Below are positions 593-6,097 of a stretch of DNA of 33,744 nt, in pieces. The stretch lies in IMG/VR virus record IMGVR_UViG_2778261543_000005; one strand, written 5' to 3'. The stretch's first letter is position 1. Each line of letters starts with the position of its first letter. The notes under the pieces are model-generated. The model was not told where the DNA came from, did no database searches, and saw nothing but the letters and a program-made list of their open reading frames with translations. The position numbers were made by a program, and so were the translations under genes. Source of the DNA: a virus (lineage: Duplodnaviria; Heunggongvirae; Uroviricota; Caudoviricetes).

Positions 593-1027
593 ATGTCCGG
601 TAATATCTATACGCTGTACAAATCCCACTGTGAAAATGTTGGAAAGTATCGGGGCATTGAAATCAGTGGGGTAGTGTCATCAGTCGAAATAAGCAAAGTT
701 GAATCAAGGGCAACATTACTTACTCTTTTGGACCTTGTCTTACATGAGCACCGGAAGAAATTCGGCACTCCCTATAATCAGTTGAATGGGAAAAAGGCTC
801 TGGTTCACCTTATTCTGATGAAGCATCACTGGATGCCAAAACAGATTAATGAGATGAAATTTGATGAACTTCTTCTTTCAATTCAGGATGAACTCACACT
901 TGATAAAATAAGCGTAACCGCCCAGAAATTTTTAGATTATCGAGACTGGAGATCACAAATTCATCACTTTGATGATTTTGACGAAAATGAATGGGATCCT
1001 AATTTGTCTGCACAATATCTAAAGTAA
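593..1027 (+). CDS. Hypothetical protein (144 aa), AT-rich cargo gene
   Basis: ATG at 593 preceded by aaaggaaaag; clean ORF; composition visibly more AT-rich than the phage core. No motif recognised. Confidence 0.55.
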   Translation: MSGNIYTLYKSHCENVGKYRGIEISGVVSSVEISKVESRATLLTLLDLVLHEHRKKFGTPYNQLNGKKALVHLILMKHHWMPKQINEMKFDELLLSIQDELTLDKISVTAQKFLDYRDWRSQIHHFDDFDENEWDPNLSAQYLK

Positions 1028-1205
1028 CATCCTGTGATAAAACCGTGATTTCCTGATCCAGTTTTTTTAAGGAGTCTATTGTTTCCTGTCGATAAGACAG
1101 CACTTCACGAAGCTGGTTTATAGCTGCCAGCTTCTTTGTCATCCACTCATAAATTTCCTCATCTGTGTAGCCAGGCGCGACGATTTTGGGTTCTGTTTTG
1201 TGCAT
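999..1205 (-). CDS. Small hypothetical protein (68 aa), convergent with and overlapping the 3' end of 593-1027
   Basis: ATG at 1205 with a strong GAGGAGG Shine-Dalgarno 7 nt upstream on the minus strand; predicted coiled-coil-like sequence. Track ORF 999-1220 trimmed to this start. Confidence 0.35.
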   Translation of the reverse strand: MHKTEPKIVAPGYTDEEIYEWMTKKLAAINQLREVLSYRQETIDSLKKLDQEITVLSQDVTLDIVQTN

Positions 1206-1264
1206 TTCACACCTCCTCAAGTTATCAGTTACTTGTTGATGGGGACCAGATTGTTAAAGAGCTA

Positions 1265-1288
1265 AGCGTCCTGTAGGGCGCTTTTTTG
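1265..1288 (+). terminator. Intrinsic terminator-like hairpin (agcgtcc tgta gggcgct) followed by TTTTTT
   Basis: 7-bp stem with one G-U pair, then a T6 run on the plus strand. Confidence 0.4.
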
Positions 1289-1470
1289 TTGCTAACGAAT
1301 CATCCTGGACTTCATATGCCCCAGGCGGCTACTTCGTGGGTGTCCTGCCTGTTCGTTGTCATAACACCTTTAAGTTGTAATTTAGTTGTGGTTTTGAATA
1401 TTGTCAACAACTTTATGTGGTTTGAACGAGTAGCCAAGGAGTGCAAGGATTATCAAAAAAAGGAGGTTGT

Positions 1471-2361
1471 ATGGAAGACGCGCTTTACGCTTTTAATTAC
1501 ACACAGAACCGGGACAAGTTATTTGCTAACTTGATTAGCATCATTGATGGAATCATTGCAGATGGAGTTGTCCGTGAAGAGGAGGTTCTTTACTTAGATA
1601 CATGGTTACTTGAAGCAAAGCAGATTATCAATAATGGAGTTATAAAAAGTCTATCTGCTCGGGTGTCGGATATTCTTGCGGATGGAATAATCACATCAGA
1701 AGAACGTGATGACCTTAAAAATAGCCTTCTCCAAATACAGAGGGAAATTCTTGATATCCCTGAAATTGATTTTTACTCCAAGGATGTAGATGTCCATTTA
1801 CTTAATGGACTATGTAAAGGATTAATTGCTGATCGGAACTTAACTCAAGAAGAAATAAGATATCTTAATTGGTGGCTTGAGCAAAATGGAGCTTTGAAGA
1901 ACAACTACCCAGGAAAAAAACTTTATGCACTTGTAAAGGAAATTCTTAAAGATGGTGTTATTACTGAAGATGAGAGTTTAACTCTACATAAGGCATTAGT
2001 AGACTTCACAGGATGTGACTTGGAAAGTGGGGTGGTGGATGGTTTGGCGACCAGGCTGCCTATTGATGTAGGGGCTTCGATAGAGTTAGAGGGTAAAACC
2101 TATTGTCTTACAGGCACTTTTGTTGCAGGAAAGAGAGCCGTAGTTGAAAATTTGATTAAAAATGCTGGTGGGAACATCAGTAGTGGAATTACTCAAAAGT
2201 TGGATTTTTTAGTAATTGGGACGCTTTCCTCCCGTGATTGGAAATTCTCTAGTCACGGAAGGAAGATCGAAAAGGCTATATCTTATAGGGATGATAATGG
2301 TGCAAAACTTAAAATTATTTCTGAAGAAATGCTTTTCGATGCATTACCAAGTTCGCGATGA
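1471..2361 (+). CDS. Cargo protein with N-terminal TerB-like repeated (A/K)DG-x-I/V...EE...L motifs and a C-terminal BRCT-like domain
   Basis: ATG at 1471 preceded by aaaaaggagg. Four repeats (IADGVVREEEV, LADGIITSEER, IADRNLTQEEI, LKDGVITEDES). C-terminus (KTYCLTGTF...IKNAGG...LDFLVIGT) resembles the BRCT domain of NAD-dependent ligases. Domain calls are by eye. Confidence 0.6.
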   Translation: MEDALYAFNYTQNRDKLFANLISIIDGIIADGVVREEEVLYLDTWLLEAKQIINNGVIKSLSARVSDILADGIITSEERDDLKNSLLQIQREILDIPEIDFYSKDVDVHLLNGLCKGLIADRNLTQEEIRYLNWWLEQNGALKNNYPGKKLYALVKEILKDGVITEDESLTLHKALVDFTGCDLESGVVDGLATRLPIDVGASIELEGKTYCLTGTFVAGKRAVVENLIKNAGGNISSGITQKLDFLVIGTLSSRDWKFSSHGRKIEKAISYRDDNGAKLKIISEEMLFDALPSSR

Positions 2362-3030
2362 CCAGAATACCCTACCTATAACATGAATTCTGGCTCGTCT
2401 ATCTTCAAAGGTGAGTATTTCATCTGGGTACTCATCTTTGTTGAAGCTTCTAAGAATCAAGCCACCGTCAGGTAAGTTGATAAGTATTTTAACCCTTAGC
2501 AATACACCATCTCGTACGGCATAAAGATCGCCATCACGAATAGGAACGGTTTGAGAAATATCAACGGCAACAAGATCTCCATTATTGAGAACCGGTAATA
2601 AACTGTTCCCCCATATTTGTACGATCTTGGCATTAGATGCACATACGCCAGATTTTCTCAAATCTGCTCTTCTTAACGGAAACCAGTCAATAGCTGATTC
2701 AACTATTTCAGCCAGACATCCGTTACCTGCCGATAACTCGACATCTAAAACAGGAATGTTTACGAAAATATCGGGGTCTAATGCGGTGCTTTCTGCTTCT
2801 TTTACAACAAGATCAGGTATGGATGCGTTGTCTTCAATACCAAGTTGTAACCACTTTTGTGATACACCTAAAACTTTTGCAATTTCTTTAATTTTGCGCG
2901 GTTGTAGAGTTTCGCCATTCTCTATTTTGGCTACAGATTGTTGTGAAAGTCCAATTTTTTCAGCTAGTTGAGCTTGGCTCATGCCAGCTTTCTCTCTACC
3001 TATCTTTAATCGTTCTGCCAGTGTTTTCAC
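2344..3030 (-). CDS. Phage repressor, CI/LexA-like (N-terminal XRE-type HTH + C-terminal S24 peptidase domain)
   Basis: GTG start at 3030 with GAGGG upstream. N-terminus MSQAQLAEKIGLSQQSVAKIENGE is a typical HTH; C-terminal half matches the S24 self-cleaving fold. Divergent from a Cro-like gene. Confidence 0.85.
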   Translation of the reverse strand: MKTLAERLKIGREKAGMSQAQLAEKIGLSQQSVAKIENGETLQPRKIKEIAKVLGVSQKWLQLGIEDNASIPDLVVKEAESTALDPDIFVNIPVLDVELSAGNGCLAEIVESAIDWFPLRRADLRKSGVCASNAKIVQIWGNSLLPVLNNGDLVAVDISQTVPIRDGDLYAVRDGVLLRVKILINLPDGGLILRSFNKDEYPDEILTFEDRRARIHVIGRVFWSSRTW

Positions 3031-3165
3031 AACATATCCCTCTCTTTTTTGATGAGGTTACAACTTTATGTTTTAGCTTTCCAACACCTAAAAGTTGTGG
3101 TAAAAGTTGTTAATGTTGTATTCTTTCAGCTCGTAACAACTTAACTACCAAAAAAGGAGAAAGCT
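3031..3165. promoter_or_regulatory. Divergent promoter/operator region between repressor and cro-like genes with repeated ACAACTT / AAGTTGT half-sites
   Basis: Half-site copies at about 3060-3066, 3092-3098, 3104-3110 and 3135-3141 in both orientations, in the intergenic space between divergent regulators. Confidence 0.55.
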
Positions 3166-3414
3166 ATGACACCTGAGCAATTAGCCTTATCGGAGGCAAT
3201 CGCTCTGGCTGGTGGTCAATCAGAATTGGCTCGGAAGCTCACAGCCAGCAGCGGTCATTTAGTAAAGCAACAACATGTCTGGAACTGGTTGAACAGAGAA
3301 AAGCGTCCCCCTGCAAAGCTCTCGATATTCATTGAAAAGACCACTGGCATATCAAAAGAAAAATTACGTCCAGATATTTTTCAAAAGATTAAAGATTCAT
3401 CAGATGAAAAGTAA
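3166..3414 (+). CDS. Cro-like small HTH regulator (YdaS/Cro family-like)
   Basis: 82 aa, divergent from the repressor, RBS aaaaaggaga upstream; small HTH protein at the canonical cro position. Confidence 0.7.
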   Translation: MTPEQLALSEAIALAGGQSELARKLTASSGHLVKQQHVWNWLNREKRPPAKLSIFIEKTTGISKEKLRPDIFQKIKDSSDEK

Positions 3415-3436
3415 CCACAGTTTTAAGGAGATAGCC

Positions 3437-3994
3437 GTGGGCAAGCATCACTGGAAAATAGAAAAACAGCCTGAGTGGTACGTGAAAGCTGTCAGAAAAA
3501 CTATCGCGGCGTTGCCGGGGGGTTACGCTGAAGCCGCTGACTGGCTGGATGTAACAGAGAACGCTTTATTCAACCGCCTTCGTGCAGATGGCGATCAGAT
3601 TTTCCCGCTGGGATGGGCAATGGTTTTACAGCGTGCTGGTGGCACTCACTTCATTGCTGATGCTGTGGCGCAGTCTGCAAATGGCGTCTTTGTGTCTCTT
3701 CCTGACGTCGAGGATGTGGACAACGCCGATATTAACCAGCGTCTGCTGGAAGTCATTGAACAGATCGGCAGTTATTCAAAACAGATTCGTTCAGCAATCG
3801 AAGACGGTGTAGTGGAACCGCATGAGAAGACAGCAATTAACGACGAGCTGTATCTCTCAATTTCGAAGCTGCAGGAACATGCAGCACTTGTCTACAAAAT
3901 TTTTTGCATTTCAGAAAGTAATGACGCCCGCGAGTGTGCAGCTCCGGGCGTCGTGGCGTCGATTGCTTCTGGTTGTGGAGAAACTAACGCATGA
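3437..3994 (+). CDS. Hypothetical early protein at the cII/YdaT position
   Basis: In-frame GTG at 3437 with AGGAG 6 nt upstream (alternative ATG at 3404 lacks an RBS); stop overlaps the next ATG (ATGA). Function not recognised. Confidence 0.45.
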
Positions 3995-4338: not shown

Positions 4339-5280
4339 ATGAGCACTAAATTAACCGGCTATGTATGGGATGGTTGCGCTGCATCAGGCATGAAGTTATC
4401 CAGCGTGGCAATTATGGCCCGCCTGGCTGATTTCAGTAATGACGAAGGTGTGTGCTGGCCATCAATTGAAACCATTGCCCGTCAGATTGGCGCGGGGATG
4501 AGTACCGTCAGAACGGCTATCGCACGGCTGGAAGCAGAAGGCTGGTTAACGCGTAAGGCGCGTCGCCAGGGTAACCGTAATGCGTCGAATGTTTATCAGC
4601 TTAACGTTGCGAAGCTTCAGGCAGCGGCATTTTCTCAACTGTCAGATTCTGACCCGTCAAAATCTGACGCATCAAAATCTGACCCGTCAAAATTTGATGC
4701 GTCGAAATCTGGCAAAAAAGCGGGTTTTCACCCGTCAGAATCTGGCGGGGATCCGTCAGTAAAATCAAAACATGATCCGTCAGATAAAAAATCTTCTCGT
4801 CCGGACGCTTCGCAACCGGACACGCAGACGGATGGACAGGATTTTTTAACTCGCCATCCTGATGCGGTTGTATTCAGCCCTAAAAAGCGCCAGTGGGGGA
4901 CGCAGGATGATTTGACCTGCGCACAGTGGCTTTGGAAAAAAATCATCGCCCTGTACGAGCAGGCCGCCGAATGTGACGGCGAGGTGGTTCGTCCCAAAGA
5001 ACCTAACTGGACAGCCTGGGCAAACGAAATTCGCCTGATGTGTGTGCAGGATGGTCGTACTCACAAACAAATCTGCGAGATGTACAGCCGCGTCAGCCGC
5101 GATCCGTTCTGGTGCCGTAACGTGCTCAGCCCGTCGAAGCTGCGGGAAAAATGGGATGAGCTTTCCCTGCGCTTATCGCCGTCCGTAAGCACGTACACCG
5201 AAAAACGCGAAGACCCGTACTTCAAATCCAGTTACGACAACGTGGACTACAGCCAGATCCCGGCAGGATTCAGGGGGTGA
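4339..5280 (+). CDS. Replication initiator (O-like; N-terminal HTH domain) with an embedded iteron array
   Basis: RBS aaatagaggtcggtc-ATG. N-terminal HTH (GMSTVRTAIARLEAEGWL) typical of phage replication initiators. Internal DNA repeats encode the low-complexity DPSKSDASKSDPSKFDASKS stretch. Confidence 0.65.
   Translation: MSTKLTGYVWDGCAASGMKLSSVAIMARLADFSNDEGVCWPSIETIARQIGAGMSTVRTAIARLEAEGWLTRKARRQGNRNASNVYQLNVAKLQAAAFSQLSDSDPSKSDASKSDPSKFDASKSGKKAGFHPSESGGDPSVKSKHDPSDKKSSRPDASQPDTQTDGQDFLTRHPDAVVFSPKKRQWGTQDDLTCAQWLWKKIIALYEQAAECDGEVVRPKEPNWTAWANEIRLMCVQDGRTHKQICEMYSRVSRDPFWCRNVLSPSKLREKWDELSLRLSPSVSTYTEKREDPYFKSSYDNVDYSQIPAGFRG
4640..4795. repeat. Iteron array / putative replication origin inside the initiator gene
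   Basis: Tandem units tctgacccgtcaaaatctgacgcatcaaaa (4648-4677) and tctgacccgtcaaaatttgatgcgtcgaaa (4678-4707), plus further ccgtcag(a/t)aaatc copies to about 4790; contains an 11-bp inverted repeat gacgcatcaaa/tttgatgcgtc. Confidence 0.55.
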
Positions 5281-5282
5281 TC

Positions 5283-5771
5283 ATGAGTCTTTTGAATGAA
5301 GTTCAGAAATACATTGAAGCCCATCCGGGGTGTACTTCCGGAGACATTGCGGATGCTTTTGCAGGTTACTCACGGCAGCGCGTTCTGCAGTCAGCAAGCA
5401 AGTTACGTCAGAGTGGTCGTGTGGCTCACCGTTGTGAAGGGGATACACGCAGACATTTCCCGCGCCTGACTGAGAGAGCGCAGGAGGCGGAACCGCAACC
5501 AGTTCGTGAAACCAGACCTGTGCGCAATTTCTATGTCGGCACTAACGACCCGCGGGAGATTTTGTGCCTGACCCGCCAGGCTGAAGAACTGGAGTCCAGG
5601 GGCTTATACCGTCGTGCTGCAACGGTGTGGATGGCGGCATTCCGTGAAAGCCACTCCCAGCCAGAACGAAACAATTTTCTGGCGCGTCGTGAGCGGTGCT
5701 TACGGAAAAGCAGCAAGCGCGCTGCATCGGGTGAAGAGTGGTATCTGTCAGGGAATTACGTGGGGGCTTAA
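5283..5771 (+). CDS. PerC-family-like transcriptional regulator
   Basis: ATG at 5283 after aggggg. C-terminal GLYRRAATVWMAAF...FLARRERCLRKS resembles the PerC/Pch family signature. By-eye assignment. Confidence 0.5.
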   Translation: MSLLNEVQKYIEAHPGCTSGDIADAFAGYSRQRVLQSASKLRQSGRVAHRCEGDTRRHFPRLTERAQEAEPQPVRETRPVRNFYVGTNDPREILCLTRQAEELESRGLYRRAATVWMAAFRESHSQPERNNFLARRERCLRKSSKRAASGEEWYLSGNYVGA

Positions 5772-6097
5772 TGACGACGTTAACTCAATGCCAGCAGCAG
5801 GTGCTGGATATGCTGATTTCTTATCAGAAAGAACGTGGCTTCCCGCCAACCAATCAGGAGGTGGCAACCATGCTGGGATACCGTTCGGTGAATGCAGCGG
5901 TGGAGCATCTTCGTGCGCTGGAGAAAAAAGGCGTCATCACGATAAAGCGTGGCGTGGCCCGGGGGATAACGCTTCATACCGCGGTGAAGGACGACGACAG
6001 CGAGGCGGTCGGGATTATCCGCTCACTGCTTGCCGGTGAGGAAAACGCCAGGCTGCGTGCAGCCCACTGGTTACATGAGAGGGGCCTGAAAGTATGA
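5771..6097 (+). CDS. LexA N-terminal DNA-binding domain homologue lacking the S24 peptidase domain
   Basis: Aligns by eye to the LexA N-terminus (LT.RQQ.V.D.I...G.PPT..E.A..LG.RS.NAA.EHL.AL..KGVI.I..G..RGI.L); only 108 aa, no Ala-Gly cleavage site or Ser/Lys dyad. TAATG overlap with the upstream gene. Confidence 0.65.
   Translation: MTTLTQCQQQVLDMLISYQKERGFPPTNQEVATMLGYRSVNAAVEHLRALEKKGVITIKRGVARGITLHTAVKDDDSEAVGIIRSLLAGEENARLRAAHWLHERGLKV

Follow-up and report, generated by a model that had tools for sequence, protein, structure and literature searches.

Short operator-like motifs from the control region between the repressor and cro genes recur at positions 1361-1420 of the DNA analyzed here (33,744 nt in full, hereafter the window), upstream of a gene encoding a BRCT-domain protein, and the question that this locus raises is what they control there. 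The original prediction took them as the control element of a cargo gene, wired to the repressor or to Cro, such that expression of the gene would be coupled to lysogeny or induction. Our results lead to a corrected reading, namely, that the motifs are OL/PL. Specifically, judging from the sequence and its conservation, it is highly probable that 1361-1420 is the left operator and leftward early promoter of an SfV-like lambdoid prophage and, more tentatively, that the distal operator in this region also serves the promoter of the BRCT gene. The proposed wiring survives in part, in that the putative operators resemble the cI/cro sites and one of them abuts a conserved BRCT promoter, but their primary target appears to be PL, which lies on the minus strand.

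The window as a whole is an SfV-like lambdoid prophage, which, in a near-identical E. coli locus, is located at a tRNA-Thr gene adjoining proA. The genes to the left of 1361-1420 run on the minus strand throughout (a 68-aa gene, yfdP, yfdQ, yfdR, yfdT, an xis-like gene, and int), and to the right are encoded the BRCT protein, cI, cro, and a CP76-type cII (Table 1). The cI product has the architecture of a cleavable CI/LexA-type repressor, with an N-terminal helix-turn-helix (Pfam HTH_3, E 1.4e-15) and a C-terminal S24 peptidase domain (Peptidase_S24, E 1.1e-14). The early-right operon also encodes a PerC-family regulator (5277-5771, plus strand) and a 119-aa protein annotated as LexA family (5738-6097, plus strand), which is apparently the LexA DNA-binding domain alone. 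Within the PL operon, an ECs1072-family gene (593-1027) occupies the opposite, plus strand, shares 29 bp with the 3' end of the 999-1205 gene, and is followed by a strong rho-independent terminator (1264-1283, plus strand) directed at PL; together, this gene and its terminator look like an insulated moron.

Table 1. Features of the immunity region and its surroundings, with conservation in bits per column (profile of 53 unique OL regions from relatives that share ancestry)
Feature	Position	Strand	Description	Bits per column
First gene of PL operon	999..1205	-	68 aa; phrog_1744, no assigned function	
Conserved, structured PL leader	1296..1357	-	about 60 nt; common to heteroimmune relatives and about 1225 E. 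coli genomes; ends where immunity-specific DNA starts	
OL1 operator (putative)	1364..1378		ACACCTTTAAGTTGT, 1 mismatch to ACAACTTnAAGTTGT; spans about -6 to +9 of PL	1.82
PL, leftward early promoter (predicted)	1379..1407	-	-35 TTGACA 1407..1402, 17-bp spacer, -10 TAAATT 1384..1379	-35, 1.94; -10, 1.79; rest of spacer, 0.49
Conserved lone half-site GTTGTG in PL spacer	1385..1390		repeats, at a distance of 11 bp, the GTTGT of OL1 (1374 to 1385)	1.74
Distal OL operator (putative)	1407..1421		ACAACTTTATGTGGT; holds the 12-mer; between -35 of PL and -35 of BRCT promoter	1.95
BRCT promoter (predicted)	1422..1450	+	-35 TTGAAC 1422-1427, 17-bp spacer, extended -10 TG 1442-1443, -10 AAGGAT 1445-1450	TTGAnn 1422-1427, 1.72; next 14 bp (spacer), 0.63; TG 1442-1443, 1.88; AAGGAT 1445-1450, 1.87
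BRCT-domain protein gene	1471..2361	+	296 aa; Pfam BRCT E 1.3e-6; phrog_3989	
cI repressor gene	2344..3030	-	HTH_3 + Peptidase_S24	
PRM, cI promoter (predicted)	3055..3084	-	-35 TTGGAA 3084..3079, 18-bp spacer, -10 TAACCT 3060..3055	
OR-a operator (putative)	3060..3074		ACAACTTTATGTTTT; second copy of the 12-mer; within PRM spacer and -10, as lambda OR3	
OR-b operator (putative)	3084..3098		ACACCTAAAAGTTGT; overlaps PR -35 by 4 bp and first base of PRM -35, as lambda OR2	
PR (predicted)	3095..3124	+	-35 TTGTGG 3095-3100, 18-bp spacer, -10 TATTCT 3119-3124	
cro-like gene (YdaS-type HTH)	3166..3414	+	Pfam PF15943 E 7.8e-15	

The recurrences first described are exact, with the 12-mer ACAACTTTATGT present at 1407-1418 and 3060-3071, and ACACCTnnAAGTTGT present at 1364-1378 and 3084-3098 and nowhere else in the window (0.02 expected). 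They are not independent of each other, being variants of a single 15-bp dyad, ACAACTTnAAGTTGT, of which OL1 is a palindromic copy with one mismatch. With up to one mismatch allowed, the 12-mer matches three times against an expectation of 0.17, a count that was reached in 0 of 100 shuffles. The dyad itself, with up to two mismatches, occurs at 319-333, 1364-1378 (one mismatch), 1407-1421, 3060-3074, and 3084-3098, against a shuffle mean of 0.17. Four of these sites fall in the two control regions, two per region, and the same is seen in 71 unique relatives; that operators are shared between OL and OR in lambdoid phages is textbook knowledge. The half-site AAGTTGT is likewise enriched in the control regions and does not occur at similar density throughout the window: 14 copies were found where 4.4 are expected, six of them within the two regions (at 1372 and 1407, and at 3060, 3092, 3104, and 3136) and two nearby (327 and 2842), and the other 30 kb holds six, which is the chance level. 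The likeness of the two regions also extends beyond the motifs first described, in that each has a half-site, (A)AGTTGT, five bases past a dyad (1384-1389; 3104-3110), and the half-site arrangement after OR-b is the same as that after OL1. A reading in which the recurrence lacks function, either as a chance match or as a relic of duplication or recombination, can appeal to the small size of the motifs and to nothing else, and given the chance expectations of 0.02-0.17 and the fixed position of the sites in 71 unique loci while neighboring spacers diverge, we regard its probability as negligible.

Several smaller features accompany the dyads. Lone GTTGT/ACAAC half-sites without a partner half occur at 1385-1390, 3104-3110, 3113-3119, 3136-3142, and 3028-3035, and these are mostly kept in relatives, with 3113-3119 kept in the closer relatives only. 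Two of them repeat a dyad half in direct orientation (11 bp at OL, 12 bp at OR); another is located in the PR leader, and a further one, a GTTGTG, overlaps the cI start codon. Covariation of the operators was considered and set aside: UPEC_U013 has ACATCT in place of ACACCT at both OL1 and OR-b, and two other loci (L012 and L017) mix the two forms, such that position 4 is tolerant. The YdaT site, given as TTGATT-N6-AATCAA (PMC9986795), was also compared and was rejected, the matching inverted half being absent.

The left pair of sites is best understood from the promoter that it brackets. A sigma-70 scan of 900-3500 returned PL as the top match, with 10 of 12 consensus positions and a predicted start near 1372. 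OL1 begins one base past the -10 of PL, over the expected start, and the site at 1407-1421 begins at the last base of the PL -35, an overlap of 1 bp only, which we counted against the OL/PL model. We read the motifs as OL/PL because they bracket and overlap a strong predicted minus-strand promoter that reads away from both the BRCT gene and cI into the early-left operon. To our knowledge, an OL/PL element is present in every lambdoid immunity region. A tandem triplet of operators spaced by about 23-24 bp was not found, and OL instead comprises two full sites 43 bp apart and one half-site; such a triplet is a feature of lambda itself and not of the lambdoid class.

The right control region can be mapped in the same manner. 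The hexamers of the predicted PRM are kept in relatives, as TTGGAA in the -35 and as TAACCT, TAATCT, TAGTCT, or TAAAAT in the -10. The spacer of the predicted PR carries the half-sites at 3104-3110 and 3113-3119, and in most relatives the aligned position reads TTGTGA-18-TATAAT. A further sequence, ATCAAAAAA, which lies 3' of the -10 in both PRM and the BRCT promoter, was examined as a shared element and dropped, as it is peculiar to the window and not conserved. Taken with the left region, this layout suggests how the switch may operate. In a lysogen, CI would occupy the OL and OR sites, thereby silencing PL and PR together, and after induction, Cro would use the same OL and OR sites; the predicted operators could be occupied by CI, by Cro, or by both. 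PL would transcribe the early-left operon, beginning with the 999-1205 gene, continuing through yfdP, yfdQ, and yfdR, and finally reaching xis and int.

Conservation was assessed over 509 kb of sequence from 71 unique related loci, a set that includes 80 IMG/VR contigs, with the profile drawn from 53 unique OL regions; these relatives share ancestry, such that the conservation scores overstate the count of independent observations. Across the 71 loci, the dyad with up to two mismatches is found at OL1, the distal OL site, OR-a, and OR-b only, plus one site in the shared left arm. OL1 is present at its offset in 70 of the 71 and the distal operator in all 71. Further, OL1 reads ACACCTTTAAGTTGT in 36 loci and its mirror form, ACAACTTTAAGGTGT, in 27, which fits recognition by a symmetric dimer. 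Among the 53 unique relatives, the predicted PL has TTGACA in 50 and TAAATT or TAGATT in 50, with a variable spacer between them. The distal operator sits in a near-invariant block, GTCAACAACTTTATGT.GTTTGA (the dot denotes one variable base), and the 12-mer type of site is, together with its flanks, almost invariant across genera. The same layout extends to four distant loci, from Providencia, Proteus, Serratia, and a record labelled Pseudomonas lundensis, in which cI is 57-71% identical: each has a dyad pair 24-25 bp apart by cro and a second pair 43 bp apart about 1.65 kb off, past a BRCT homologue. The last of these records (L007, titled Pseudomonas lundensis strain I31) carries the whole module together with an enterobacterial-type PL leader, and its copy (cI 71% and BRCT 77% identical) is closer than those of Providencia, Proteus, or Serratia; its species label may reflect contamination or a recent transfer.

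The boundary of the immunity region falls where an OL/PL element would place it. SfV, SfII, SfIV, Kati, and others, along with about 1200 complete E. coli genomes, match the leftward DNA at 95-99% up to 1357-1360, and this breakpoint is the edge of OL1, such that the site lies at the border of the immunity-specific segment, where heteroimmune relatives diverge. Beyond it, both SfV and SfIV carry a TTGACA promoter of their own, together with GGTACA-type repeats that are found again in the cI/cro region of the same phage, and Kati has a different promoter and different repeats at the same spot. The comparison is closest for SfV (and also SfII and SfIV), which shares with the window the early-left operon, a PL leader of about 97% identity, the position of PL, and the cII-like and replication genes, but differs in cI, cro, and the operators and lacks the BRCT gene, with cI and a terminator following directly after PL; in SfIV as in SfV, no gene intervenes between the PL region and cI. 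The immunity region of the window was found in no sequenced phage record, and the closest phage repressor to its cI is 44.5% identical. The complete module is present in 48 of 5426 complete genomes and in many IMG/VR contigs, and a variant with the BRCT gene deleted is present in 24 genomes. NCTC9038, RM7190, and 2012C-4221 are among the strains with the module.

This variant separates the motifs from the BRCT gene. In UPEC_U013 and 23 other E. coli genomes, the gene is cut to a 62-aa remnant next to two intact OL sites and an intact TTGACA-17-TAGATT promoter; because OL/PL persists in 24 genomes where the gene has been deleted, the motifs appear to be independent of the BRCT gene and to serve PL. 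The promoter assigned to the BRCT gene has, in this lineage, decayed, with TG changed to GG, AAGGAT to AAGGGT, and the spacer shortened to 16 bp. These observations bear directly on the view that the motifs are a dedicated control element, at which the repressor or Cro mainly sets BRCT expression. Such a role would be in keeping with the location of the sites, 50-107 bp upstream of the BRCT start codon, and with the abutment of one site to the conserved BRCT promoter, yet it leaves unexplained the near-consensus promoter on the opposite strand between the two sites, the presence in heteroimmune relatives of their own operators at the same place where no such gene exists, and the persistence of the sites and PL in 24 BRCT-deleted genomes while the BRCT promoter decays. 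We consider dedicated control very improbable, and as the sole role of the motifs, it is already contradicted.

With the motifs read as OL/PL, a second question is whether the distal operator additionally serves the BRCT gene. The gene needs a promoter of its own because the terminator at 1264-1283 blocks read-in from the left and because the cI transcript cannot be shared. Such a promoter is predicted immediately past the distal operator, where all 53 unique relatives have TTGAnn and 47 of them have TGnAAGGAT, always at the same offset; conserved hexamers flanking a variable spacer of fixed length (17 bp) are the footprint of an extended -10 promoter, and transcription would start near 1457, within the A-run that precedes the ribosome-binding site. 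The -10, AAGGAT, has three of six consensus positions, and the promoter was missed by a generic promoter scan. Other candidates were rejected, namely TTGAAC paired with GATTAT, which has a 20-bp spacer; TTGTAA-16-AATATT, which overlaps PL and is not conserved; and TTGTCA at 1401-1406, which has no -10. A GTG at 1441 was likewise rejected as an alternative in-frame start, since the A-run of relatives contains frame-shifting length changes and is, hence, non-coding.

The position of the distal operator relative to this promoter resembles that of an activating site. The first base of the BRCT -10 is located 31 bp downstream of the operator center, at 1414, and the center of OR-b, at 3091, lies at the same distance from the -10 of PRM; we take this spacing to be within about 1 bp of that of lambda OR2 relative to PRM. 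In lambda, the activating operator is centered at about -42 from the start, and here a putative operator is found about 42 bp upstream of the predicted BRCT start, touching a weak -35, as in PRM. By a purely geometric argument, activation of the BRCT gene by the repressor is plausible: CI at 1407-1421 would stimulate BRCT transcription in a lysogen, making cI and BRCT a co-expressed pair.

Two alternatives accept the sites as OL/PL and differ in what they imply for the BRCT gene. First, the BRCT promoter could be constitutive, with its adjacency to the operator reflecting the tight packing of the immunity region. Extended -10 promoters may work without an activator, and a TTGAnn -35 with an extended -10 TG, as seen here, can do so; this we hold to be possible, if doubtful, as the operator-promoter distance lacks any indel in 53 unique relatives in which the flanking spacers are free to vary and equals the distance from OR-b to PRM. 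Second, CI, or Cro after induction, could repress the BRCT promoter from 1407-1421, which would make expression of the gene transient or lytic. The predicted BRCT start is no more than about 90 bp from either operator, and cooperative binding across 43 bp, or about four helical turns, might bend the DNA, occluding the promoter. The operator is, however, clear of the BRCT -35, spacer, and -10 and is placed where lambdoid repressors activate, and the homologues of the gene in K139 and phi1 (discussed below) lie in the repressor operon and so are expressed in the lysogen. Repression therefore seems unlikely.

The BRCT protein has four similar helical repeats in its N-terminal region, for which no Pfam match and no PDB sequence match were found, and a C-terminal BRCT domain; PADLOC returned only a weak match, to the candidate system PDC-S48. 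Homologues that are 56-77% identical occur at the same position and in the same orientation in four other genera, as well as in 80 IMG/VR contigs. In all relatives found, including those with cI identity as low as 57%, the gene stands beside this repressor family, which makes the label of cargo misleading; from the comparison of these loci, it is a conserved member of the immunity module across several genera. A similar association exists outside this module. Specifically, in Vibrio phage K139 (L006, 2280-3858) and Pseudomonas phage phi1 (L093, 1569-3112), a BRCT homologue lies directly 3' of the repressor gene in the same operon, and is therefore expressed in the lysogen there. The K139 homologue, orf2, is 33% identical to the BRCT protein over 95% of its length, and the K139 repressor (the one compared) has no detectable similarity to the cI of the window. 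This suggests a recurrent functional link between the BRCT protein family and prophage repressors. A search of the literature on BRCT proteins linked to prophage immunity found nothing relevant.

The window differs from K139 in that orf2 is co-transcribed with cI, whereas the BRCT gene here is convergent with cI and has its own predicted promoter by the OL operator. The convergent 3' ends overlap by 18 bp (2344-2361), and by 9-18 bp in all relatives, and no clear terminator was found for the two transcripts. Antisense interference between them is possible, and since the genes converge with overlapping 3' ends and no terminator between them, BRCT transcription could feed back on cI. We put forward, as a tentative hypothesis, a three-gene immunity unit in which the repressor would switch on a PRM-like promoter at OL for a BRCT protein that always travels with the repressor family; transcription of the BRCT gene could in turn affect cI by way of antisense RNA or polymerase collision, and the BRCT protein might be expressed in the lysogen as a partner of the repressor, with a role, for example, in phage exclusion or in sensing DNA damage.

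Placed beside well-studied systems, the proposed layout can be compared with that of lambda (and also of 434 and P22), in which a CI-type repressor gene (HTH plus S24 peptidase) likewise lies between two operator clusters built from one dyad motif, with one cluster over the leftward early promoter and the other over the divergent PR and PRM. Lambda also has an OR site that overlaps the PR -35 and lies next to the PRM -35, and its heteroimmune relatives, too, diverge at the operators. The differences are that the dyad is 17 bp in lambda and 15 bp in the window; that lambda has three tandem sites (about 24 bp apart), whereas each cluster of the window has two full sites, separated by 43 bp at OL and by 24 bp at OR, together with lone half-sites; and that the window has a divergent promoter at OL, which lambda lacks, and has no N gene. 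An accessory gene between the repressor gene and OL also has precedents, in rexA-rexB of lambda and in the cI-orf2-glo-int operon of K139, where such genes are expressed in the lysogen. For an immunity type found commonly among E. coli prophages, the analysis thus defines the operator sequence, promoters, and boundaries. The novelty lies in mapping the operator sequence and promoters of this uncharacterized type and in the hypothesis of a repressor-coupled BRCT partner gene. The BRCT protein is possibly a repressor-activated partner of prophage repressors in three phage lineages and, if so, would represent a new lysogen-expressed function in the genetic switch.

Downstream of PL, the leader RNA appears to have a conserved fold. 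RNAalifold predicts a closing stem and two hairpins, with four compensated pairs, the compensatory changes being CCUGG/CCAGG versus CCCGA/UCGGG and CCGGU/ACCGG. Neither the leader nor the control regions matched an Rfam family, and no second copy of the leader was found downstream of PR or elsewhere in the window. In this phage group, which has no N gene, the leader may represent a put-like element or a processing element. HK022, which also has no N gene, likewise has a structured RNA of about 60 nt just downstream of PL, the antitermination RNA put, which acts on RNA polymerase; this likeness is one of placement and predicted fold and is a lead only, and put is found in both the PL and PR leaders of HK022, whereas the window has no PR copy.

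Farther along the early-left operon, 260-482 on the minus strand matches the Rfam small RNA family STnc100 at 43.1 bits (E 3.3e-7), the gathering score of the family being 47. The fifth operator-like site, at 319-333 (ACAGCATAAAGTTGT, two mismatches), lies inside this STnc100-like stretch. It is probably not an immunity-specific operator, being missing from the homoimmune UPEC_U013 relative and identical in the heteroimmune SfIV, SfV, and Kati.
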